A DNA stretch of 38,544 bases from a virus (taxonomy: Duplodnaviria > Heunggongvirae > Uroviricota > Caudoviricetes), in IMG/VR virus record IMGVR_UViG_2698536428_000019. One strand, written 5' to 3'. Below the pieces are notes generated by a model that worked only from the letters and a program-made list of their open reading frames with translations, had not been told where the DNA came from and did not search any database. Below are positions 3,897 through 31,986 of this stretch, in pieces. The stretch's first letter is position 1; each line of letters opens with the position of its first letter. A program made the translations under genes and the position numbers.

Positions 3897-5093
3897 GTGA
3901 ATAATATGGCTGAAACCCGTTTCCATGGCGTGCGGGTCCGGGAGAATGCGGATCTGGTCACGGCCATTAATGATATTGACTCCAGTGTGATTGGTATCGT
4001 GGCTGTTGCTGATGATGCTGATGCAAAAACATTTCCGCTGGATAAGCCGGTGCTCCTGACGCGCGTTATGGATGTGCTGGGTAAGGCCGGGAAAACCGGC
4101 ACGCTGTACAAAAGTCTGAAAGCTATTGCCGATCAGGTCAGCACCAGAGTTGTTGTGGTGCGGGTTGCTGCTGCGAAGGAGGGGGATGGTCAGCCGACAC
4201 AAACGCAGCTTGTTATTGGTGAGGTCAAAAATGACGGAACCTATACAGGCATGCAGGCGCTCCTGGTGGCTGAACAGAATGAGGCTGTTGGTGTTCGTCC
4301 CAGGATCCTGGCCGTGCCATCGCTTGACACCAAAGAGGTGGTGGCGGCACTGGTAACCGTCGCGAAAAAGCTGCGTGCCTTTGTGTATGCGGGCTGTCCC
4401 GGCTGTAATACCGTGCAGGAGGCCGTTACCTGGCGCGCCGATCTTGCTCACCGTGAAGTTATGCTGATCTGGCCTGATTTTATCGCGTACAACCCTAACA
4501 GTGGCCAGAATGAGGCTTTTCCTGCATCTGCGTATGCGTGCGGGTTGCGTGCGAAGATTGACCACGAGCAGGGCTGGCATAAATCCCTGTCCAATGTGGC
4601 AGTGAATAATGTCCTGGGTATTTCTGTGCCGGTGTTCTGGTCGCTCCAGGCAGAGGACAGTGACGCGGAAACCCTCAATGACAAGGAGATCACCACACTC
4701 ATTAAACGTAACGGCTTCCGTTTCTGGGGTAACCGGACTCTCGACACCACTACCTACACCTTTGAGACCTACACGCGTACGGCGCAGTCGCTGGCGGATA
4801 CCATCGCCGAATCGCAGTTTGAAACCGTGGACAAGCCGCTGACGCCGTCGAACGTGAAGGATGTGTTAAGCGATATCCGGGCAAAACTGAGTGCCCTTGT
4901 GACAGCGGGTAAACTTATCGGGGCAGAGTGCTGGTATGACGTGGTGGATAACGGCACAACGGATCTGCGTCAGGGGATTGTGCGGATCCGCTACAGATAT
5001 ACGCCGGTACCACCGCTTGAAGATCTGGAGCTTCACCAGACGTTTACTGATGAGTTCTTTGACGGTGCATTTGCATCACTGGGAGGTGAGTAA
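3897..5093 (+). CDS. tail sheath protein (P2 FI homolog)
   Basis: 398 aa; translation aligns along its length with P2 FI as recalled (e.g. KPVLLT, LRAF.Y, WPDF, GFRFWGNRT, YTPVPPLE). Confidence 0.95.
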   Translation: MNNMAETRFHGVRVRENADLVTAINDIDSSVIGIVAVADDADAKTFPLDKPVLLTRVMDVLGKAGKTGTLYKSLKAIADQVSTRVVVVRVAAAKEGDGQPTQTQLVIGEVKNDGTYTGMQALLVAEQNEAVGVRPRILAVPSLDTKEVVAALVTVAKKLRAFVYAGCPGCNTVQEAVTWRADLAHREVMLIWPDFIAYNPNSGQNEAFPASAYACGLRAKIDHEQGWHKSLSNVAVNNVLGISVPVFWSLQAEDSDAETLNDKEITTLIKRNGFRFWGNRTLDTTTYTFETYTRTAQSLADTIAESQFETVDKPLTPSNVKDVLSDIRAKLSALVTAGKLIGAECWYDVVDNGTTDLRQGIVRIRYRYTPVPPLEDLELHQTFTDEFFDGAFASLGGE

Positions 5094-5602
5094 TGGCGGT
5101 ACCAAACAAACTTCGCGTTTTCACGGTGTACATCGATGGCGAAAACAAGCTGGGGCGGGTGACGTCCTTCACGCCGCCTAAACTGACCCGAAAAACGGAG
5201 TCCTTCCGTGGTGCCGGGATGCCCGGCAGTGTTTCCGTCGACTTTGGTCTTGATGATGGTGCACTGGATCTCTCTTTTGCGGTAGGCGGCGCAGATGCCC
5301 ACCTTTTCTCCCGTTATGCCGGGTCACTTGATGAAGTCCGTCTTCGCTTTTCCGGTGAGTACTATTCGGATGCGGATATCAGATATGTGGATATTGAGGT
5401 CCGCGGGCGCATCACTGAAATCGATATGGGGGAGGCGAAGCAGGGTGAAGACACTGAGCACAGTTATTCGATGAAAAACACCTGGTACAGACTGAGTGTG
5501 GACGATCGGGAAAAAATCGAATTTGATGTGCTGAATTTTATCTGGCGCATTGACGGTAAGGATGTGCTGCCGGATCGCACCCGCTCGATGCTGGGCTTCT
5601 GA
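5093..5602 (+). CDS. tail tube protein (P2 FII homolog)
   Basis: 169 aa; TAATG overlap with the sheath stop and SD gggaggtg; position and size match FII. Confidence 0.9.
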   Translation: MAVPNKLRVFTVYIDGENKLGRVTSFTPPKLTRKTESFRGAGMPGSVSVDFGLDDGALDLSFAVGGADAHLFSRYAGSLDEVRLRFSGEYYSDADIRYVDIEVRGRITEIDMGEAKQGEDTEHSYSMKNTWYRLSVDDREKIEFDVLNFIWRIDGKDVLPDRTRSMLGF

Positions 5603-5649
5603 TTATTGTTTAACAGAGAACGGCGGGGATCCCGCCGTGGAGACTGAAA

Positions 5650-6039
5650 ATGGATAAAGAAACGGAAATGGCCACTGACACTGCCGTCAGTAACGGGGAG
5701 GCTTCCGCGGTGGCAGTTGCCGCTACGGCTGCACCTAAGAACGTGGTGAAGCTGACGGTGCCTGTTGTGCGCGGAGATGTGTCGTACAGTGAAATTAAAA
5801 TCGGACCGCTGGCGAATCAGGCCGGATCTCTGCGTGGGCTGTCTTTGCTTGCGCTTTACAACATGAACTGTGATGCCATGGTCACCTGGCTTGCGCGTGT
5901 GACAGAGCCAAAACTTAAGGAGGCCGAAATGTATGCCATGAATACGGCGGATTTTACGGCGCTGAGCTCGGCGGCGGTTAATTTTTTCGCACCCTCGGGG
6001 TCGAATGCACCGGCACCGGAGAACACGGCAGAGCCGTAA
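5650..6039 (+). CDS. tail assembly chaperone (P2 E homolog)
   Basis: 129 aa acidic/Ala-rich protein between tube and tape measure; SD ggag upstream. Confidence 0.8.
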   Translation: MDKETEMATDTAVSNGEASAVAVAATAAPKNVVKLTVPVVRGDVSYSEIKIGPLANQAGSLRGLSLLALYNMNCDAMVTWLARVTEPKLKEAEMYAMNTADFTALSSAAVNFFAPSGSNAPAPENTAEP

Positions 6040-24197: not shown

Positions 24198-25241
24198 ATG
24201 AGTAAACGCAAAAAATACACCGGAAAGCGGGGGCAGGATTCGCTACACGATGCACTGAAATCAACGCCTGCACTCAGCGCATTCACCTTTGATGGGCCCT
24301 ATGAAGTCAGCCGCATGGATCTCCTGGATAACATGTCATGTGCAGATAACGGGCGCTACTTTGATACCCCCATGGACTGGAACGCTATCGCCCGTGCATC
24401 CCGTCGTGCGTCCTGGCATCAGTCGGCTTTGTACTTCAAGCGCAACGCCCTGAACGGGTGCTTTGTTCCTCACCCTCTGCTGTCCCGCCAGGCGTTTTCA
24501 GCGTTTGCGCTCGACTGGTTTGTGTTTGGTAATGCCTATCTTGAAGTGCGGCGTAACAGGCTGGGGGAACCACTCCTGCTTCGCCCGGCACTGGCAAAAT
24601 ATACACGCAGGGGAAGTGACCTGGATACCTACTGGTATCTCAACGACGACGGTACGGAGTTCAGTTTCAGGAAAGGGACTGTGTGCCACGTGCTTAATCC
24701 TGATATTAATCAGGAGATCTACGGGATGCCGGAATATATCGGCGGGTTGCTGTCTGTCAGCCTGTCAAACTCAGCGGATACATTCCGCAAGCTCTACTAC
24801 GATAACGGCTCTCATGCCGGGTGTATTATCTATGTAGGCACATCTCAGGCGAATGCGGAAAGTGTCGAGGCCATTAAAAAAACGCTTACGGATTCCCGTG
24901 GTCGCGGGGCGTTTAAAAACCTGTTTCTACATGCGCCGGGTGGTGGCAAGGATGGTGTGCAAATACTGCCGTTCCAGCAGATAACCGCAAAGGATGAATT
25001 CCTGAACATCAAGGGGAGCGCCCGCGACGATATCCTTGCTGCCCATCGTGTACCACCTCAACTGATGGGGGCAATGCCTGACGGGAATGCGGCGTTTGGT
25101 GACGTTGAAAAAGCGGCGAGAGTGTTTTTCATCAACGAGTTGCAACCTGTCATGGAGGCCATGAAGCATGTCAATGAATGGCTTGGCGTTGAGGTGATGC
25201 GCTTTAACCCCTATGCCCTGCTTCTGGATAACGCCAGCTGA
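24198..25241 (+). CDS. portal (capsid) protein Q homolog
   Basis: 347 aa immediately downstream of P; size matches P2 gpQ. Confidence 0.9.
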   Translation: MSKRKKYTGKRGQDSLHDALKSTPALSAFTFDGPYEVSRMDLLDNMSCADNGRYFDTPMDWNAIARASRRASWHQSALYFKRNALNGCFVPHPLLSRQAFSAFALDWFVFGNAYLEVRRNRLGEPLLLRPALAKYTRRGSDLDTYWYLNDDGTEFSFRKGTVCHVLNPDINQEIYGMPEYIGGLLSVSLSNSADTFRKLYYDNGSHAGCIIYVGTSQANAESVEAIKKTLTDSRGRGAFKNLFLHAPGGGKDGVQILPFQQITAKDEFLNIKGSARDDILAAHRVPPQLMGAMPDGNAAFGDVEKAARVFFINELQPVMEAMKHVNEWLGVEVMRFNPYALLLDNAS

Positions 25242-25268
25242 CGCGCTTCGCTTGTCTGCTGCTTCGCC

Positions 25269-25291
25269 GGGGCATAAAAAATTTATGCCCC
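25269..25291. terminator. hairpin between convergent portal gene and the unknown gene at 25307..25810
   Basis: GGGGCATAA-aaaat-TTATGCCCC, a 9-bp stem with no clear U-tract. Confidence 0.35.
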
Positions 25292-25306
25292 GACTCTCCA
25301 GCTCTC

Positions 25307-25810
25307 TTAACGGAATGCGGATGGCGTTCTTCTTTGCAGCTTGCTGATAATATGTATCTTCATGCTGTTTACTATCGGCAGCCATTCCCTGTCACCGTCT
25401 CCGTTGATGACCACGCGAATGGAGGTATCATCTTCCACGCGAACCCGAAGAGATACACCGTCTTTTCCGACGGAATGTAACTCCATTGCCAGGACTATGT
25501 TTACCGACTCTCCTTCATCGTGTGAGTCAACCCATGTTCTTACAGCCATCCGGAATATGTTATCTGTGTCGGTTGCAATCATATTTACCGGAAATGGCCT
25601 GAAGTCCCGATCGTTTCTGCACGGAAACCCCGTATCAACGTAACGATGATGCTCGCCGTCTTTGTCTTCCCATGTCTCTGAAGGCAATTCCAGCCACTGC
25701 TCATAAAAAGCAACCAGCTTTTCAGCCTGATTGCGCAGAATCCCTGTAACCTCCCGCCTCGCGTCCCGGCTCTTTTTGTTTGCCAGGTACAAATCGCGAA
25801 AATGGCTCAT
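25307..25810 (-). CDS. hypothetical protein (167 aa) in the portal-cos accessory slot
   Basis: ORF with SD aaggag 7 nt upstream of the ATG; soluble, acidic; no family recognised by eye. Confidence 0.6.
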   Translation of the reverse strand: MSHFRDLYLANKKSRDARREVTGILRNQAEKLVAFYEQWLELPSETWEDKDGEHHRYVDTGFPCRNDRDFRPFPVNMIATDTDNIFRMAVRTWVDSHDEGESVNIVLAMELHSVGKDGVSLRVRVEDDTSIRVVINGDGDREWLPIVNSMKIHIISKLQRRTPSAFR

Positions 25811-26293
25811 GTCGCTCTCCTTTGGTCTGTTTATGCCAGCCTGTATTCTGCGCTCACCTCATATTGTGCGCAAGTTTTCACCCGTGAATGACTGATACTT
25901 TAAATTCTATTAACTTTATGATTTCAGTGATTTTTGTCTCTCTTTTTTATCCCGTTCGTCACGTCCGTTTCCCTCCCGATCTCCGACCTCGCCAGACGCA
26001 ATCAGACGCATTCTGACGGCCTGTTTCCCTGACCATGTTTTGATGTGGTTTTTCAAAACTGGCTTCACTGCGCGCGTATCATGCGCAATACGACCCCAAA
26101 TAAAGCAACCTGCCTTCCACCCCTCAATTCGTGCGCCCTTCCCTCGTCGCCTGCGCGCTGCAATTGCCTCGTTTTTCGTGCACCGTGCAAAGTGGCTTCA
26201 GCCCGCGCCGTTACTGGGCTGAGTGGGGATGAAACACATAAGAAAAATTGTGCAATTTCGTGCACTTTTGTGCAGTTTGAAACGGGTATCTGT

Positions 26294-26323
26294 TTGACAC
26301 TGGTACTTACTTTGCGCTAACTT
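26294..26323 (+). promoter_or_regulatory. candidate sigma70 promoter (TTGACA-18-TAACTT) driving the leader and membrane-protein gene
   Basis: Perfect -35 hexamer TTGACA at 26294..26299; a three-fold 10-bp-phased GTGCA repeat lies immediately upstream. Confidence 0.35.
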
Positions 26324-26484
26324 TACTCGACCAGAAATTTCAATGAATCGGATGAGGTTGTTTGTCATACGACCTCGGTTAGCTAGGTTGCCTTAATCAA
26401 AAGGCATGTTTGATACTGGAGGAGGTTAATATGAATAAAGCATTTGACGAATTTGATGGATTCTGAATGTGTTAACCTCGATAA

Positions 26485-26510
26485 GGCGGAGACTGATCTC
26501 CGCCTTTTTT
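26485..26510 (+). terminator. intrinsic terminator/attenuator 15 nt upstream of the membrane-protein gene ATG
   Basis: GGCGGAGA-ctga-TCTCCGCC followed by TTTTTT. Confidence 0.6.
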
Positions 26511-26524
26511 ATTGGTAAAGAAAT

Positions 26525-27028
26525 ATGGCTATGGACTCAGTAACGATACAAATCATTAGCAATATGATAGTCCTGTTTGGTGTCATTGTTGCTATCTGTA
26601 CAATTATCTATAACGTTCGTACGGCAAAAAAAACACAAACCGCTAATTTTTTATTTGAAAGTCGCCAGGATAAGGAATACCTGGAATCATTACATCTCCT
26701 CAGGAGAATTCATCGCTCAGGGAAATCGTTTCGTGCTTATGTTTTTCCTTGTGAAGGCGGGGCTATTACGGAAGAGGAGATGACCGAACGTCGCAAGTTT
26801 CAGTACATTCTTAACTTTTACGAGAGAGTTGCAGTTAGTATCCGTGAAGGTATTTATGATGAAAGGATGATCAAACGAACGTCCTTTACAACGATTATTA
26901 CAACTTATGATATTGCAGAACCCCTGATTAAGGCTATCAGAGAAGATACTCAATCAAAAACAGCGTACCAGGAGTTTGAATGGCTGGTAAAACGATGGAA
27001 AGCTCGTCCTCTTGATAGGGATGTGTAG
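26525..27028 (+). CDS. membrane-anchored hypothetical protein (167 aa) in the old/tin position; candidate defence or exclusion gene
   Basis: N-terminal TM helix (IQIISNMIVLFGVIVAICTIIY) then a roughly 135-aa charged domain; visibly AT-rich; same orientation as P2 old/tin; weak RBS. Confidence 0.65.
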   Translation: MAMDSVTIQIISNMIVLFGVIVAICTIIYNVRTAKKTQTANFLFESRQDKEYLESLHLLRRIHRSGKSFRAYVFPCEGGAITEEEMTERRKFQYILNFYERVAVSIREGIYDERMIKRTSFTTIITTYDIAEPLIKAIREDTQSKTAYQEFEWLVKRWKARPLDRDV

Positions 27029-27043
27029 TTTATTTCTTGCATT

Positions 27044-27070
27044 AGAGCGAGGTTATTGGTGCCTCGCTCT
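27044..27070. terminator. hairpin between convergent membrane-protein gene and SSB-like gene
   Basis: AGAGCGAGG-ttattggtg-CCTCGCTCT, 9-bp stem. Confidence 0.4.
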
Positions 27071-27075
27071 TTAAA

Positions 27076-27393
27076 TTATCGAGCCGTTCTTGCGCTCATG
27101 ATGCTTTGCGCCAGCAACTGCCAGCCCTCTTTCTGTTGCCCGCGCTTGTCCTGATACCTGTTTACCTGCAAGTTTCCGTGCACCAGAATCAGATCGCCTT
27201 TTCTGTGTTTTGCCAGTTCTTCGTGCTGCTTCCCGAATGCAATAAGGTAAAGCCACATTGTGGTTGGCTGTTCTGCGCCATGGCAGGGTAGTGATACCGC
27301 CAGTTGTGCCGTTGTGACGTTGGTTCCTTTGGTTGTTCTCCTTGTGTTCGGGTCTGCTGCCAGTCGTCCCTCTGTTGCAACCTGTGTTGGCAT
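27076..27393 (-). CDS. small SSB-like OB-fold protein (last gene of the early operon)
   Basis: 105 aa; pattern resembles the E. coli SSB OB-fold (..W..V.F.GK.AE......KG....(V/I).G.L) without the acidic C-terminal tail. Confidence 0.5.
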   Translation of the reverse strand: MPTQVATEGRLAADPNTRRTTKGTNVTTAQLAVSLPCHGAEQPTTMWLYLIAFGKQHEELAKHRKGDLILVHGNLQVNRYQDKRGQQKEGWQLLAQSIMSARTAR

Positions 27394-27425
27394 ATTTGTC
27401 TCCCGTGTTGGTTTTATTGTTGGGG

Positions 27426-27764
27426 TTAGATGGCTGGCAGATCTCCGCCAGCGCCGTAGATAAACAGAATTCGCTTCATGATTTCGCTGCGCTTACAGGC
27501 TTCGATGACTGATTTTTCCTGTTGCCATTCAGTCCTTTGCGCCAGTTCCTGTCGTTCCTTTTCCGTTGGCTTGCGATAATGCGTTACCTTGTCGGTGTAC
27601 CCGTCCACAACCAGCAGCCCTTCGCGTACCATCTTCCCGGCGGCCTGATTAATGATGGTCCTTTTCACGCCCAGTTTTTCAACCAGCTCTGGTGCGCTGA
27701 AGCGTGCGTGCGTTTCCAGGTAGCGTAAAATGATTACCTTTCCGGTCATTCTGGGTGTCTTCAT
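27426..27764 (-). CDS. putative winged-helix DNA-binding protein
   Basis: 112 aa from the ATG overlapping the upstream stop (ATGA); HTH-like segment APELVEKLGVKRTIINQAAGKMVREGLL. Confidence 0.5.
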   Translation of the reverse strand: MKTPRMTGKVIILRYLETHARFSAPELVEKLGVKRTIINQAAGKMVREGLLVVDGYTDKVTHYRKPTEKERQELAQRTEWQQEKSVIEACKRSEIMKRILFIYGAGGDLPAI

Positions 27765-27931
27765 TTGGCGGCTCCTTCGTTGTTCCGGCGTTCGCGGAGT
27801 TCGGTCAGTGCTGCCAGTAAATTTTCCCACCATGTTTCTTCCACAACCGGATTTCGTCGTGAAAGCAGCTGCTGCGCCGACTCAATCATTTTCGTAAGCT
27901 CTTTGTCGCTGATCCTCCTGATGTCGTTCAT
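27761..27931 (-). CDS. hypothetical small protein (56 aa)
   Basis: Start chosen at the ATG with SD aaggag (MNDIRRISDKEL...). Confidence 0.45.
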   Translation of the reverse strand: MNDIRRISDKELTKMIESAQQLLSRRNPVVEETWWENLLAALTELRERRNNEGAAK

Positions 27932-27979
27932 GGTGTGCTCCTTCGGTTTGCTGTTTCTGGTCATGTTCATGGTCTTTTG

Positions 27980-28384
27980 TTACCTGCGTGATTGCCTGCT
28001 GGCGGCCGAATGCACATAGCGGACAATTGCCGCTTTTCGGTTAACGACGGCCAGCGTTCTTGCCAGTTCTTCGTTGAGTTTTCTGGTCTGTTTTTCGTGG
28101 TATGCCTGCATGATTTTTCCTACGGGAGTCAGTGGTTCAGGCTCTGATATGGCGCGACGAGGGCGCACGGCAACGATGAATGCGCTTCTGTCGGTGTTGA
28201 TTCTTGCAGTCAGGATGTCGGTCATAACGGTGTCTGTGCTGCGATCGGGACTGGCGATCGTGATTTCCAGTTCGTCGCCTGGCTGCGGTCGAACACTGAC
28301 GCCGCTCAGTGTCAGTGCCGGAATGCGTGCGTTCATGATGGTGCTGAAATCATGGCGCTGGAGTACGCAATGGAATCGTGTCAT
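27980..28384 (-). CDS. hypothetical protein (134 aa)
   Basis: ATGA overlap with the stop of replication gene A; same strand as the early operon. Confidence 0.5.
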   Translation of the reverse strand: MTRFHCVLQRHDFSTIMNARIPALTLSGVSVRPQPGDELEITIASPDRSTDTVMTDILTARINTDRSAFIVAVRPRRAISEPEPLTPVGKIMQAYHEKQTRKLNEELARTLAVVNRKAAIVRYVHSAASRQSRR

Positions 28385-30894
28385 GGGTTAACCTCCGGTT
28401 GATCTGCTGCCACCAGGCTTCGTGATTTTTCATCCCAGTGCACAATCCGCCCGTCAGGCAGGCGAACGCGTGCACCTCTGTGTACGGAAAGTGCTGCGCC
28501 ACTGTGTAGCTCCTCGCCCGTCGTGCTCAGTGCCGACTTGATTACGGTGGTGGTGACGTCAGTCAGCGGCAATGCTGTACGCACATGTATGACGTCATCG
28601 GGCGTGGTGGGGCCGCCGGTTTTCACGGTTTTTGTGTCAGATGGCGCATCTTTCAGCTGCCTGGTGAGTTGTTTTCTCTCTGTGGGGGTCAGTGACCTTA
28701 ACCATTCGCTCAAATCACCTTCCGGGATGGTCAGTTTTTGTTCTTTCCTGGTTTCCGGTGGTGGGGTTTTACCCTCTCCGGTGTCTGTTTTTTCATCATG
28801 GGGACAGTTATTGCCACGAGTCCAAGGTGCGGCGAAGCCGCCCCCAACGTCAAAATCCTCGTCCGTGCTGTTGTCGGCTTTCGCTTCTTTTCTGACCAGT
28901 TTCCACTCGTCCGGATGGGTGCAGATGGTGTAGCGCTCGCCGAGCGACGGGGCACAAATTCCGTAGATGCGCTGCGGGAATTCGCCGTAGTCGTTGGCCT
29001 CATCTGCGGTTTCGTATGCGGTGCGGACCAGGTACGCGTTGCGGGGAATGAGCACGCCACCCTGGCGGGTGATGTAGGTGGCAAAACACCCCACGTCAGC
29101 AGCGGCCAGAATGGCGTCAATGTCGTCATGATCCAGGCGCTTCGGTGATGCCGGGTTGCGCTCCATTTGTCCGGCAAGGCGGCGTAGTTCACGCCACACC
29201 TGGCGGGGCGGGATGCCGAAGAACTGGAACTGACGGATGCGATGGAGACTCGCCCAGGCAATGGCGTTTTCCACGGTTTCCGCCATGGTTTTTCCCGATT
29301 CTTTATCGGCGTAAGGTTTGCCGGTTTTCGGGTCATTGTCGTGAAAGGTGCTGGCGTCCAGGTTCTTGCCAATATAGGTTGCGATGTAGCTTGCCGGTGT
29401 GCCTTTTGCCGGGTCGATTTTTTCGCACTTGAAGCGCGGAGAAATATCATTCCCCAGTTCTGCGCGATCTGATTTGATTGCTGCATCACGCATGATTTCA
29501 ATGATGCGTTCTTCATTGTCCGGGGAAGTGAATACCAGCATGTGCCAGTGTGGTGTGCCGTCATGGTGTGGCTCAACGGTGCGCACCCCGTACCAGCTCA
29601 GACCTTCTTTGTTGAGTTTTTTTCTTGCAGCTGCAAAGACGTCGTAAACCAGATAATCACTGGCATCGCGCACGGTGGCACCGTTGTATTTCGGGTTCAG
29701 GCTGCCGTCCTCGTTCACGCTGTGAAAGCGGGAAGGGCAGGTCACTGTTACGAAGAACGCGGAGTCACCACGCGATTCGGCGACCTGTTCCATCCCTCTG
29801 ACGCAGGCCATCATCTCGTTGCGGCGGTTGCGCGGATTCCCCAGCCCTGACCAGTACACGTCCTCCAGACTCAGGCGTTCACCGTCTTCGTTTTCAATGT
29901 CCCAGCTTTTGAGAAAATCACGGGTGCGCTGGCGTTTCTCCCGGAATTTCTGGAGTGACTCATGGCTGATGTAGGGGGATGCCTTGCGCGATACTCTTCC
30001 GGCGGCACGCAGTAATTCCTCCCGCCAGAGATCAGCGAGGTGGCGCAGCTGGTTGTTCCACCAGGTGGCGCAGGTGATGCGCATGACTGCACCCGGTACC
30101 CGTTCAGGGTCTGGTGCCGTGCGGCGGTCACGTCTGATCTCGAGTGACGGCCAGTATGGTGGGGTCACGCCCAGTTTTAACGCCATGCGCGCCAGCTGCT
30201 GGTAAGTCAGCAACCAGGTAAACAGGTTATCGTCGCCTTTTCCTGTCCGCTCAGTAACTTCATCACATATGCGTTCCAGTTCGGTGGAAAATGCCGCCGC
30301 TGTTAGTGTGGCAAGGCGCTGAATTTGATCACGGTTGAGTTGTGGCAACATGAGTAATTCATCAAGGCGATGGCGTGCTGCGGTGGCTCTGAATGCTGTC
30401 GTGGCGAAGCATTCATTCACCTGTTCGATGCGTTTCAGGCGTGTGCGCAGTCCACGGCGAACGAAGTTATCGGCCACGTGAGTGTTGTTGTTTTTCACGC
30501 CTTCATTGCGGGCGCTTTGTTGTTTGCGGTTTAAACGCGCCAGATCACGAATGAGCGCGTTACCAAGAAACGAGGGCAGGGTGCGAAGTTCTGCCATGGC
30601 TTCCGATACCAGCGTTGGCGGATTTTCTCGTTTGTGTCTCGCCAGTTTTTCCAGTCTGATCCGGCGCTCTTCGTCGTGGTGAAGATGCGAATTAATTCGC
30701 TTGCCTTCGTCTGTGTTTGTCAGGAAGGAGACGGTTTCTTCATCCAGTCTGGCATCAATGCGAATGTCTTCGTTGATGTAGCTCTGAATGGCCTGGCGTA
30801 ATGCGGTTGGTTGCGCTCTGCCGAACGTTTCAGGATCGATAACCGGTAGCGGGGCGTTCCACGGGTACGCCAGTTGTGCGTTATGGTCGCTCAT
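28381..30894 (-). CDS. replication initiation endonuclease (P2 gene A family, rolling-circle Rep)
   Basis: 837 aa; only large early protein, with size, position and general character of P2 gpA; start at the ATG overlapping the upstream stop (the ORF-track start is a GTG). Confidence 0.85.
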   Translation of the reverse strand: MSDHNAQLAYPWNAPLPVIDPETFGRAQPTALRQAIQSYINEDIRIDARLDEETVSFLTNTDEGKRINSHLHHDEERRIRLEKLARHKRENPPTLVSEAMAELRTLPSFLGNALIRDLARLNRKQQSARNEGVKNNNTHVADNFVRRGLRTRLKRIEQVNECFATTAFRATAARHRLDELLMLPQLNRDQIQRLATLTAAAFSTELERICDEVTERTGKGDDNLFTWLLTYQQLARMALKLGVTPPYWPSLEIRRDRRTAPDPERVPGAVMRITCATWWNNQLRHLADLWREELLRAAGRVSRKASPYISHESLQKFREKRQRTRDFLKSWDIENEDGERLSLEDVYWSGLGNPRNRRNEMMACVRGMEQVAESRGDSAFFVTVTCPSRFHSVNEDGSLNPKYNGATVRDASDYLVYDVFAAARKKLNKEGLSWYGVRTVEPHHDGTPHWHMLVFTSPDNEERIIEIMRDAAIKSDRAELGNDISPRFKCEKIDPAKGTPASYIATYIGKNLDASTFHDNDPKTGKPYADKESGKTMAETVENAIAWASLHRIRQFQFFGIPPRQVWRELRRLAGQMERNPASPKRLDHDDIDAILAAADVGCFATYITRQGGVLIPRNAYLVRTAYETADEANDYGEFPQRIYGICAPSLGERYTICTHPDEWKLVRKEAKADNSTDEDFDVGGGFAAPWTRGNNCPHDEKTDTGEGKTPPPETRKEQKLTIPEGDLSEWLRSLTPTERKQLTRQLKDAPSDTKTVKTGGPTTPDDVIHVRTALPLTDVTTTVIKSALSTTGEELHSGAALSVHRGARVRLPDGRIVHWDEKSRSLVAADQPEVNP

Positions 30895-31307
30895 GCGTCG
30901 CACTCCCCGGCAGTTGCCACCTGAAACGCCGCGCGGTACAGCACGAGAAGGCGCTGGTATTCACCGATAAAGTCTTCTGCGGTGTATATGCCTTTCACGG
31001 CCACGCTGTGGGTTGTCATTTCCAGAACCAGTGCCATCTCTGACGATGACCAGCTGATGGCGGTACTGTCGGTGCCGTTGATGTGAAATAAACCAAAGCC
31101 ATCACCGTCACCTTTCACGTCCACGCGGTAACGACCGTCAACGGTGAAGGAGAAATCCCCGGATGTGGTGATGCTGCGGGCAGCCTGTTTACAGGCGCGG
31201 CGGTAATAGTCGTGCCAGTCGTTCAGGCGGGAAGCCAGCCGGGGATCCACTGCCCACATCCAGTTAAAAAAATCCTGAATATCTGAAAGTCCCTTAACGC
31301 TCTTCAT
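30891..31307 (-). CDS. hypothetical early protein (138 aa)
   Basis: ORF translationally coupled to gene A. Confidence 0.55.
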   Translation of the reverse strand: MKSVKGLSDIQDFFNWMWAVDPRLASRLNDWHDYYRRACKQAARSITTSGDFSFTVDGRYRVDVKGDGDGFGLFHINGTDSTAISWSSSEMALVLEMTTHSVAVKGIYTAEDFIGEYQRLLVLYRAAFQVATAGECDA

Positions 31308-31603: not shown

Positions 31604-31986
31604 GGTGTTGCCTCTTCGTTTGTGAATTTTGAAAACTCACCAACCAGAGGTGGAAAACTCAGGGTGGCGAGACGTACAGGGTTTCCACAACCGGCAAACG
31701 AAGAAACCGGCCCGACCGAAGTCGGCCCTGTACGCCCCGCCATAATTCTGACGCGAAAAAGACGTGGCGATACAGTACGCACAAAAAAACCGCTGGCGCG
31801 GCTGTGCGCTTCGTTTGTCAGCGGGGTGGAAATCCCGGCACCCGTTTTATGAGGTGCAGCGGAAATGTAACCCGACACGACGAGCGCTGGCAAGCGGTTT
31901 TTGTGTTGCGTGCTGATGTGGTTAGAATGTGGCGAATTAATATCACCTGGCAACTGGTGATTGTCTGCATACGCGGGGTGTTTCTG

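Follow-up and report, generated by a model that had tools for sequence, protein, structure and literature searches.

The window, i.e., the whole stretch of 38,544 nt that was analysed here (IMG/VR record IMGVR_UViG_2698536428_000019), is a P2-like prophage of the Xuanwuvirus type. Its terminase and portal genes are followed by a cargo cassette, ssb, a MarR/Ren-like gene and, on the opposite strand, replication gene A. The cassette combines a promoter, a leader with an open reading frame (ORF) of 11 codons, an intrinsic terminator and the gene of a membrane protein of the Pfam family DUF4760 (Table 1). Our main finding is that this micro-ORF is, as judged from sequence comparison, a conserved peptide gene and probably not merely a gate for the expression of the gene behind it.

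Table 1. Features of the cassette and two flanking genes, in positions of the window
Feature	Position	Strand	Basis
Cargo cassette (807 bp) in a gpA-gpQ hotspot of P2 type	26279..27085	+	flanks shared with sibling prophage, GC drop
Promoter: -35 TTGACA (26294-26299), 18-nt spacer, -10 TAACTT (26318-26323)	26294..26323	+	sequence reading; transcription start predicted
Two hairpins in the 5' untranslated region (26354-26376, 26389-26406)	26354..26406	+	minimum-energy and centroid folds
Shine-Dalgarno sequence (SD) of the micro-ORF, GGAGGAGG	26418..26425	+	strong; sequence reading
Micropeptide gene MNKAFDEFDGF, 11 codons and TGA	26431..26466	+	strong SD; motif conservation
Anti-SD segment GTTAACCTC, pairing with 26422-26430 in a helix that encloses the micro-ORF	26471..26479	+	minimum-energy fold
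Intrinsic terminator, perfect 10-bp stem (26483-26506), 4-nt loop, T6	26483..26510	+	best terminator-like site in the region
DUF4760 gene, 167 aa, weak ribosome binding site (alternative start 26531)	26525..27028	+	Pfam PF15956
Single N-terminal transmembrane helix, ~residues 6-30, followed by R32/K35/K36	26540..26614	+	Kyte-Doolittle maximum 2.7 over 19 residues
Basic all-helical domain, isoelectric point (pI) ~9.4, invariant motifs LNxYE and YQEFEWLxxRW	26615..27025	+	
3' hairpin closing the cassette, 9-bp stem AGAGCGAGG/CCTCGCTCT, 9-nt loop	27044..27070	.	sequence reading
Portal gene	24198-25241		open reading frame list
Replication gene A	28381-30903	-	open reading frame list

Conservation was studied in loci encoding relatives of the protein, 80 of them from IMG/VR and 27 from species-representative genomes, with counts restricted to full-length DUF4760 genes for which upstream sequence is available (n=100). 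A short ORF with a strong SD precedes 100/100 of these genes, down to a protein identity of 24%. A strict-motif detector is positive for 95 of the 100 loci vs. 4/1358 other ORFs from the same loci, which served as control. The five loci without the strict motif show the endings EGWEV, EGWED and EGWGG, an extension by four residues due to a mutated stop codon, and an insertion sequence (IS) between the two genes. The encoded peptides comprise 8-20 residues, begin with M-K/R-K, have no hydrophobic signal and share the C-terminal consensus [D/E]-[E/G]-[F/W/Y]-[D/E]-G-[F/Y], while their N-terminus is variable. With regard to individual groups, the enterobacterial clade shows M..FDEFDGF, Halomonadaceae ..DENDGY, Pasteurellaceae ..NEGWDGF, Achromobacter ..EGWDGC, Rhodovulum ..EGWGG, P. 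stutzeri ..EGWEI and Zoogloeaceae ..EGWNG; further variants are ..DEFEGF, ..DEFEWV, ..DEYEGV and ..DEYDWF. On the whole, the peptide classes (DEFDGF, DEYEGV, DENDGY, EGWDG) follow the protein clades.

Selection can be read from the DEFDGF class, which is encoded by 11 nucleotide versions with zero nonsynonymous changes. Every third position is variable and all three stop codons are used, and the identity of the partner proteins varies between 62% and 100% across these versions. That is, the 11 synonymous versions argue for selection on the amino acids and not on the RNA. The original prediction had already named the micro-ORF and its strong SD, both of which we confirm, and regarded it as part of a tight gating of the downstream gene. 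This idea holds in so far as leader, terminator and weak ribosome binding site are real and should keep the protein scarce. It does not hold for the micro-ORF as a mere gating device, since its amino acids are under strong purifying selection, it is kept where a terminator is missing and it also occurs alone elsewhere. RefSeq calls only the DUF4760 ORF and leaves the peptide gene unannotated, both in the prophage identical to the window and in two related entries. We also considered the peptide as a mimic of the protein's invariant QEFEWL motif but set this aside, given that the peptide varies and the motif of the protein does not.

The region separating the two genes comes in two architectures. 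A GC-rich hairpin, usually followed by a T-run, lies within a spacer of 40-80 nt in the enterobacterial and halomonad clades and in several others, and the sequence of this hairpin is not conserved between clades. For the distant EGW clades, the peptide's stop codon overlaps or abuts the main start codon (TAATG, TGATG) and no hairpin is present. The retention of the peptide across unrelated cis layouts argues for a product that acts in trans. In the window, the terminator ends 14 nt 5' of the main ATG and its stem starts 16 nt past the stop codon of the micro-ORF, i.e., we estimate it to lie beyond the footprint of a ribosome halted at that stop, given the known size of such footprints. Neither folds of the window's leader nor alignments of related loci revealed a structure that competes with the terminator stem, and we thus read the terminator as probably setting a ratio (much peptide, little protein) rather than working as a switch.

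A pairing between the SD region and a segment just upstream of the terminator had been proposed as an alternative structure. Such a duplex is indeed present, i.e., GAGGTTAA (26421-26428) with TTAACCTC (26472-26479) reaches -14.7 kcal/mol, a value attained by 0.2% of shuffles. However, the helix is restricted to the close enterobacterial clade (at least 72% protein identity), is absent from clades of at most 62% identity and shows no overlap with the terminator stem, such that a regulated read-through switch is not indicated. This bears directly on a cis-acting leader peptide, i.e., the gating idea in its strict form, in which translation of the micro-ORF or stalling at its C-terminus would control read-through or downstream initiation. 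Models for such control are tnaC, erm and mccA. The order of micro-ORF, terminator and weakly initiated gene fits this explanation, as do the SD/anti-SD helix within a significantly structured leader, the concentration of conservation beside the stop codon (as in termination-stalling peptides) and a small stop-codon hairpin with compensatory changes. We nevertheless consider it very unlikely. Besides the position of the stem 16 nt past the stop, the lack of an antiterminator overlapping it and the clade restriction of the helix, the same peptide is kept without a terminator (TAATG overlap) and also at loci where no same-strand gene follows (L144, L138, L141). A short ORF upstream of an intrinsic terminator, as found in attenuators, does exist here (26431-26466; 26483-26510), but a regulated attenuator was rejected, as no conserved terminator-competing structure exists, the SD/anti-SD helix is clade-limited and the peptide is kept without any terminator.

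The predicted leader of 198 nt is more stable than 200/200 dinucleotide shuffles (z = -3.29) and folds into two 5' hairpins, the helix closing around the micro-ORF and the terminator. Related leaders have hairpins at the same place with different sequence, and RNAalifold recovers only the terminator and the small hairpin over the micro-ORF stop. The latter has 5 bp (alignment columns 73-86, window ~26455-26470) with the stop codon in or beside its loop, and GGC..GCC alternates with GGT..AT; the sequences are related, so these compensatory changes represent few independent events. The TTGACA promoter, the intrinsic terminator and the weak ribosome binding site had all been described before and are supported by our analysis. 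For the promoter, the -35 (TTGAC[ACT]) and -10 (TA[AG][TC]TT) elements are conserved in position among related cassettes; it escaped our consensus scan owing to its weak -10. The main ATG has no good SD.

Further observations concern the regions around these elements. An operator-like inverted repeat, ATTACC-N6-GGTAAT, spans the -10 in many related cassettes (L005, L007, L010, L026, L028, L029, L034), while the window allele shows no clear copy. A 13-nt direct repeat, TGTTTGA[C/T]ACTGG, lies over the -35 (26291-26303) and just 5' of the micro-ORF's SD (26407-26419). Following the T-run, TTTTTTATGGATGAAA (L007, L017, L026; window 26505-26524) is nearly invariant in the close clade, and in several loci it opens an ORF of 4-5 codons whose end reaches or overlaps the main ATG, pointing to translational coupling with the main gene; the window has ATT in place of this ORF's ATG. 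The 3' hairpin escaped the terminator scan because its loop exceeds 8 nt, and in view of its weak U-tract its function is a prediction. Rfam gave no match in the cassette at gathering score. With relaxed settings, isrP was proposed for 26442-26510 (27.6 bits vs. 45 gathering) and rejected, since the hit rests on a TTAACC-plus-terminator likeness and 0/12 related loci reach the threshold. No tandem repeats were detected in the leader, the sole array (26248-26278) being backbone outside the cassette; a type III toxin-antitoxin system was rejected for the lack of such RNA repeats.

The product of the main gene matches Pfam PF15956 with 122 bits (cut-off 25 bits, E = 2.7e-35) over profile positions 2-141 of 141, and 19/19 diverse members of the family do so too. 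The original prediction could not assign the protein to a family, which is hereby superseded; its single N-terminal transmembrane helix, in contrast, is backed by one strongly hydrophobic segment at about residues 6-30. RefSeq holds the identical protein begun at the second ATG (26531, 165 aa), and the PHROG match is phrog_2284 of unknown function. From the positive-inside rule, the C-terminal domain is predicted to be cytoplasmic. Its pI of about 9.4 is found in 18 of the 19 diverse members. The AlphaFold2 model, based on 42 sequences, is entirely helical with a predicted local distance difference test score of 88.5 and a helix over residues 5-48. Pfam shows no enzymatic or DNA-binding domain for the protein among the 19 members, and neither an NCBIfam match nor a PDB match by sequence or profile was obtained. 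A tblastn search against 50,697 phage records returned unnamed DUF4760 genes only, for which reason homology to P22-type exclusion proteins was discarded.

The structure comparison suggested along with the original prediction gave the plant EDS1/PAD4/SAG101 EP domains as closest solved folds, by structure only. Within the Foldseek results EDS1 ranked first with a probability of up to 0.98 and template modelling scores of 0.53-0.57, but E-values of 0.27 and above are not significant. At sequence level, EDS1_EP (PF18117) gave no Pfam match at E<=10 in the 19 members, and hhalign against the verified AtEDS1 region 347-623 yielded a probability of 0.1. A protein search seeded with EDS1, intended as the basis of an EP profile, yielded a single fragment because the database is poor in plant proteins, and the BFVD structure search returned one unnamed relative. 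The lipase-like domain of the EDS1 family is absent, i.e., the 167 residues make up a membrane helix and a helical domain only. Based on these model comparisons, we treat the EP likeness as a resemblance at fold level and not as membership.

The EP domain is a ligand-sensing module, and this nearest structural analogue brings up a ligand-receptor pair, in which the peptide or its C-terminal hexapeptide would be sensed by the cytoplasmic domain in an arbitrium-like manner and peptide copies without a DUF4760 gene would be eavesdroppers or manipulators. In line with it, the peptide gene adjoins the putative receptor gene, the six C-terminal residues are conserved next to a variable N-terminus, and the peptide classes track the protein clades. 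Nevertheless, we think it decidedly unlikely that the pair works this way: the peptide has neither a signal sequence nor an export function, the protein lacks a DNA-binding or enzymatic output domain, and close relatives show no diversification of the peptide, which is identical over 62%-100% protein identity. A direct comparison with arbitrium and RRNPP systems likewise found no secretion signal in the 8-20 residues and neither tetratricopeptide repeats nor a helix-turn-helix in DUF4760.

We delimited the cassette by comparison with a sibling E. coli prophage, which shares the flanks 25001-26278 and 27086-28500 at 98-99% identity and carries different cargo in between. This places the limits at 26279-27085 and revises the formerly given 26294-27070. 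The AT-richness noted before is evident, i.e., the cassette has a GC content of 39.5% compared to 53.8% for the whole window, with 0.39-0.40 across the gene and 0.50-0.58 in the flanks. The old and tin genes of P2 are located in the gpA-cos interval and encoded opposite to A, with the start of their mRNA adjoining cosR. The cassette gene is encoded on the plus strand and A on the minus strand, and the putative promoter reads toward A, such that both the position and the orientation attributed to the gene agree with old-tin. Like cos-proximal cargo of P2, the cassette sits between A and the portal gene Q, varies between near-identical prophages and has its own predicted promoter directed toward A on the opposite strand. 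The DUF4760 gene is swappable cargo of the gpA-gpQ (old/tin) hotspot.

This hotspot was defined as the gpA-gpQ interval next to cos by Rousset et al. 2022 (PMC9122126), whose Table S5 includes DUF4760 arrangements, e.g., DUF4760 + StbA + Plasmid_stab_B. Their hotspot catalogue lists the protein but not the micropeptide (PMC9122126). The P2 cos sequence was not found near the cassette. One E. coli hotspot holds a remnant next to new cargo, in which the ATG of the peptide gene is decayed, as are the terminator and the main gene.

With 2118 representatives at 50% identity (E<=0.001), nearly all of them stand-alone proteins of 150-200 aa, DUF4760 spans gamma-, beta- and alpha-proteobacterial phages. 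A match over micro-ORF and gene is found in 297 of 5426 complete E. coli genomes (5.5%), in all cases chromosomal and many of them ST131; the window's own allele is present in two complete E. coli genomes. The closest relatives occupy the same P2 slot, while in more distant P2-type loci the gene adjoins the portal gene in the opposite orientation. P22-like phages carry it between Ant/tailspike and an ejection-type virion protein, lambdoid phages between the tail genes K and I beside lipoprotein morons, and other clades directly after integrases. These three settings are classic moron sites.

The peptide is also found without DUF4760. A DNA scan of IMG/VR for FDEFDGF followed by a stop codon gave 39 new loci, with DUF4760 next in 26 and absent in 13; L032, also returned, was already part of the sample and is not counted. 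For this pattern of about 39 bits, we estimate less than one match by chance. An equivalent scan for NEGWDGF gave 7 matches, one with DUF4760 next and 6 without, the latter being stand-alone MMCNEGWDGF ORFs in contigs of gut phages, placed 5' of an unrelated ORF of 104 aa. Both scans taken together, 19/46 motif matches lack DUF4760. For L154 and L157-L160 (Human Microbiome Project gut phage contigs), the ORF has 10 codons and a good SD and lies 9 nt 5' of the non-DUF4760 ORF, and in L158 it is partly duplicated.

The settings of the remaining copies vary. In one P2-like hotspot (L144, MKKAFDEFDGF) promoter and terminator are kept, DUF4760 is lost and the next gene is convergent; MKNLFDEFDGF is found in the P2-like hotspot of L138/L139. 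The lambdoid Q-to-lysis region holds MLDEFEGFDEFDGF with two repeats (L133, L142) as well as MFDEFDGF with a terminator (L141), and a 183-kb contig (L124) encodes MFEENWGFISEEDWGLDEENWGVFDEFDGF with four repeats. Carriers among virulent Straboviridae (T4-like) belong to Karamvirus and to Providencia Gualtarvirus, with 1-2 repeats each: Enterobacter phage PG7 (L153), where MFSLRKFDEEDFEFFDEFDGF is the annotated coding sequence gp053 in the a-gt.2 to gp47 interval, Klebsiella phage VPA32 (L162, MFSLRKFDEFDGF, one repeat), Cronobacter phage Pet-CM3-4 (L163, a two-repeat form) and Providencia phage PSTRCR_121 (L161), which has MIVTCVLDEFEGFDEFDGF unannotated at a different locus. The whole Karamvirus region is present in about 21 phage records, CC31 included; tblastn with the 21-aa Karamvirus peptide gave no matches, and the copies were found by DNA searches. 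The hosts of these T4-like phages are Enterobacter, Klebsiella, Cronobacter and Providencia, and DUF4760 is encoded by bacteria of three of these four genera and by Franconibacter, a relative of Cronobacter.

Such copies raise the question whether the peptide itself is the effector, i.e., a short linear motif imitating a C-terminal tail of acidic-aromatic type and acting on a conserved host or phage protein. The SSB tip (DFDDDIPF) and the tails by which proteins of T4 and T7 bind clamps and polymerases are examples, and the peptide may resemble such acidic tails ending in Phe. Here, DUF4760 would be an accessory (a sink, an immunity protein or a localiser), or the pair would serve prophage maintenance and not defence. 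The occurrence of the peptide alone in many temperate and virulent phages, at varied genomic sites and in tandem repeats, speaks for an effector, and a much stronger conservation of the peptide than of DUF4760 is expected with a conserved target. On the other hand, this leaves unexplained why the peptide lies directly 5' of every DUF4760 gene and why both genes were lost jointly in the remnant. A constitutive, highly expressed inhibitor of host replication factors should moreover be costly for lysogens. Overall, we regard an effector role of the peptide as unlikely.

The reading we favour, tentatively and somewhat short of calling it probable, is a toxin-antitoxin-like exclusion module in which an abundant peptide restrains a scarce membrane protein and the orphan copies are decoys. 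The prophage would express the two genes from their own promoter. Most transcripts would end at the terminator and provide only the well-translated acidic peptide of 11 residues, while a minority would read through and, due to the weak ribosome binding site, yield little DUF4760 protein. The latter would reside in the inner membrane by its single N-terminal helix with the basic helical domain toward the cytoplasm. Acting in trans, the peptide would bind this domain with its acidic-aromatic C-terminus and keep the protein inactive in the manner of an antitoxin. Once the peptide supply is halted, e.g., through the shut-off of host transcription by an infecting phage, the short peptide would be degraded, and the freed membrane protein could act on the cell or the invader, resulting in exclusion or abortive infection. 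Orphan and multimerised peptides of other phages, including virulent ones, would then serve as antidote decoys. Observed are the anatomy of the cassette, the joint occurrence of both genes, the selection on the peptide, the hotspot setting and the orphan copies; binding, inhibition, toxicity, trigger and anti-phage outcome are steps that we infer.

Several observations are consistent with such a peptide antidote. First, the charges are complementary, i.e., a domain with a pI of about 9.4 meets an acidic peptide core. Second, the layout favours an excess of the peptide, whose gene lies upstream and has a strong SD, while the main gene is placed behind a terminator with a weak ribosome binding site or is translationally coupled. 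Third, the protein is never found alone (100/100 loci) while the peptide is (19/46 matches). Finally, in L018 an IS with a 370-aa transposase (~4627-5963) is inserted in the terminator loop; the micro-ORF (MKKMHDEFDGF) and the DUF4760 gene on either side of it are intact, but the latter is uncoupled from its promoter. The placement in the P2 hotspot and in moron sites, the joint decay of both genes in the remnant, the retention of the peptide in both layouts and the orphan copies of T4-like phages, whose host genera or relatives of these encode DUF4760, also speak for this reading. The asymmetry between the two genes, the peptide-only hotspot and the uncoupling by the IS are what a toxin-antitoxin arrangement predicts; none of them is proof, and our preference stays as tentative as stated.

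A number of findings weigh against the peptide-antidote module. DUF4760 is missing from the table of tested systems of Rousset et al. (PMC9122126). PADLOC-DB v2, the comparison with which had been advised in the original prediction, contains no family matching the protein at E<=1. The searchable literature on DUF4760, PF15956 and the peptide motifs holds no functional work and no link to a peptide. A single membrane helix does not make the protein an obvious toxin, and the cassettes of E. coli often adjoin a ParM/StbA partition system, which suggests that the role may be prophage maintenance and not defence. In L088, where the main gene is intact, a mutated stop codon lengthens the peptide by four residues, which fits poorly with an essential free C-terminus. 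Conservation of the peptide also greatly exceeds that of the protein, i.e., the peptide stays identical while the protein spans 62%-100% identity, such that the target of the peptide could instead be a conserved host protein. An independent effector role would account equally well for the orphan peptides of virulent phages.

If the antidote reading is true, it would imply a new kind of antitoxin, i.e., a ribosomally made peptide of about 10 residues, together with a new membrane effector and a counter-defence by antidote mimicry in already sequenced T4-like phages (PG7, CC31). A peptide of 8-13 residues would, to our knowledge, be the smallest protein antitoxin. In a stronger version, the protein would be a membrane-anchored immune effector with a sensing domain that is the prokaryotic or viral counterpart of the EP domain of the EDS1 family, held off by this 8-13-residue antidote and countered by the single or multimerised copies of virulent T4-like phages. 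We find this version distinctly improbable. Were the EP resemblance due to common ancestry, it would be relevant to how a signalling module of plant immunity arose, one for which the searched literature describes no prokaryotic relative. Of practical relevance is that the peptide gene escapes annotation, so that cloning of the ORF alone tests half a system. The module is also common, with 5.5% of complete E. coli genomes and about 2100 family clusters at 50% identity.

The surrounding backbone offers some further observations. Three copies of TTGTGCAATT (26248-26278) lie just beyond the left edge of the cassette and are kept in P2-like relatives regardless of cargo; they may hence be a backbone binding site near cos. 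In the same slot, the sibling prophage (L004, E. coli STEC2018-607, 5157-5693) encodes a 178-aa multi-pass membrane protein (phrog_1416, unknown function) within a cargo region of 42.7% GC. The neighbouring ssb (27076-27393, minus strand) encodes 105 aa with an OB fold and without an acidic C-terminal tip, ending in ...SIMSARTAR. A functional link of this tail-less SSB with the cassette was set aside, as ssb is phage backbone and the neighbours of other cassettes differ. It is followed by a MarR-type winged-helix protein (27426-27833, minus strand; phrog_142 'Ren-like exclusion protein', E = 2e-28). Between portal gene and hotspot, an ORF of 167 aa (25307-25810, minus strand; phrog_5091, unknown function, no Pfam family) is kept in the sibling prophage. 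At 31660-31857 (minus strand), a C4 antisense RNA (82 bits) adjoins isrK (64 bits), i.e., a P1/P7-type immI-like RNA module within a P2-like prophage; the pair is also present in the related loci L027 and L034, while L017 has C4 alone.

When compared with known systems, the module resembles toxin-antitoxin and abortive-infection cassettes in design and matches none in components. On record already are the Pfam family and its presence in the P2 hotspot, while the searchable literature is silent on function, peptide and their link. The cargo of P2 old/tin shares the gpA-gpQ slot, the orientation, an own promoter and AT-rich, swappable content (PMC9122126). The protein of the cassette, however, is homologous to neither Old nor Tin and matches none of the PADLOC models. 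With the plant EDS1/PAD4/SAG101 EP domains, DUF4760 has a basic, all-helical character and a putative immune context in common, but it is membrane-anchored, lacks a lipase-like domain and shows no sequence signal. Cam1 of type III CRISPR systems is a single-helix membrane effector whose CARF domain senses cyclic oligoadenylate. One N-terminal helix with a cytoplasmic domain, a design where oligomerisation can perturb the membrane, is found in both, while nothing comparable to CARF was detected in DUF4760.

For the relation between the two genes, SpoIISA of Bacillus subtilis is informative, a membrane toxin with three helices that is neutralised by SpoIISB (56 aa). Here, too, a small separate partner would bind the cytoplasmic domain of a membrane protein, yet the cassette has one helix and a peptide of 8-20 residues, and no sequence relationship is expected. 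The mccA gene of microcin C is a 7-codon ORF followed by a terminator before mccB-E. Similarly, a tiny well-translated ORF and an intrinsic terminator would give a large excess of short transcript; MccA, however, is a substrate of the downstream enzymes, while DUF4760 has no enzymatic signature. In ToxIN, the antitoxin comes first and a terminator sets the ratio of antitoxin to toxin, and phages escape with expanded antitoxin mimics. Its antitoxin is a repeated RNA and ToxN a soluble RNase, in contrast to the selection on amino acids and the membrane protein observed here. Both the gene order and the terminator between the genes correspond to the cassette, and the phage mimics of ToxIN (pseudo-ToxI) may find their parallel in the orphan and repeated peptides.

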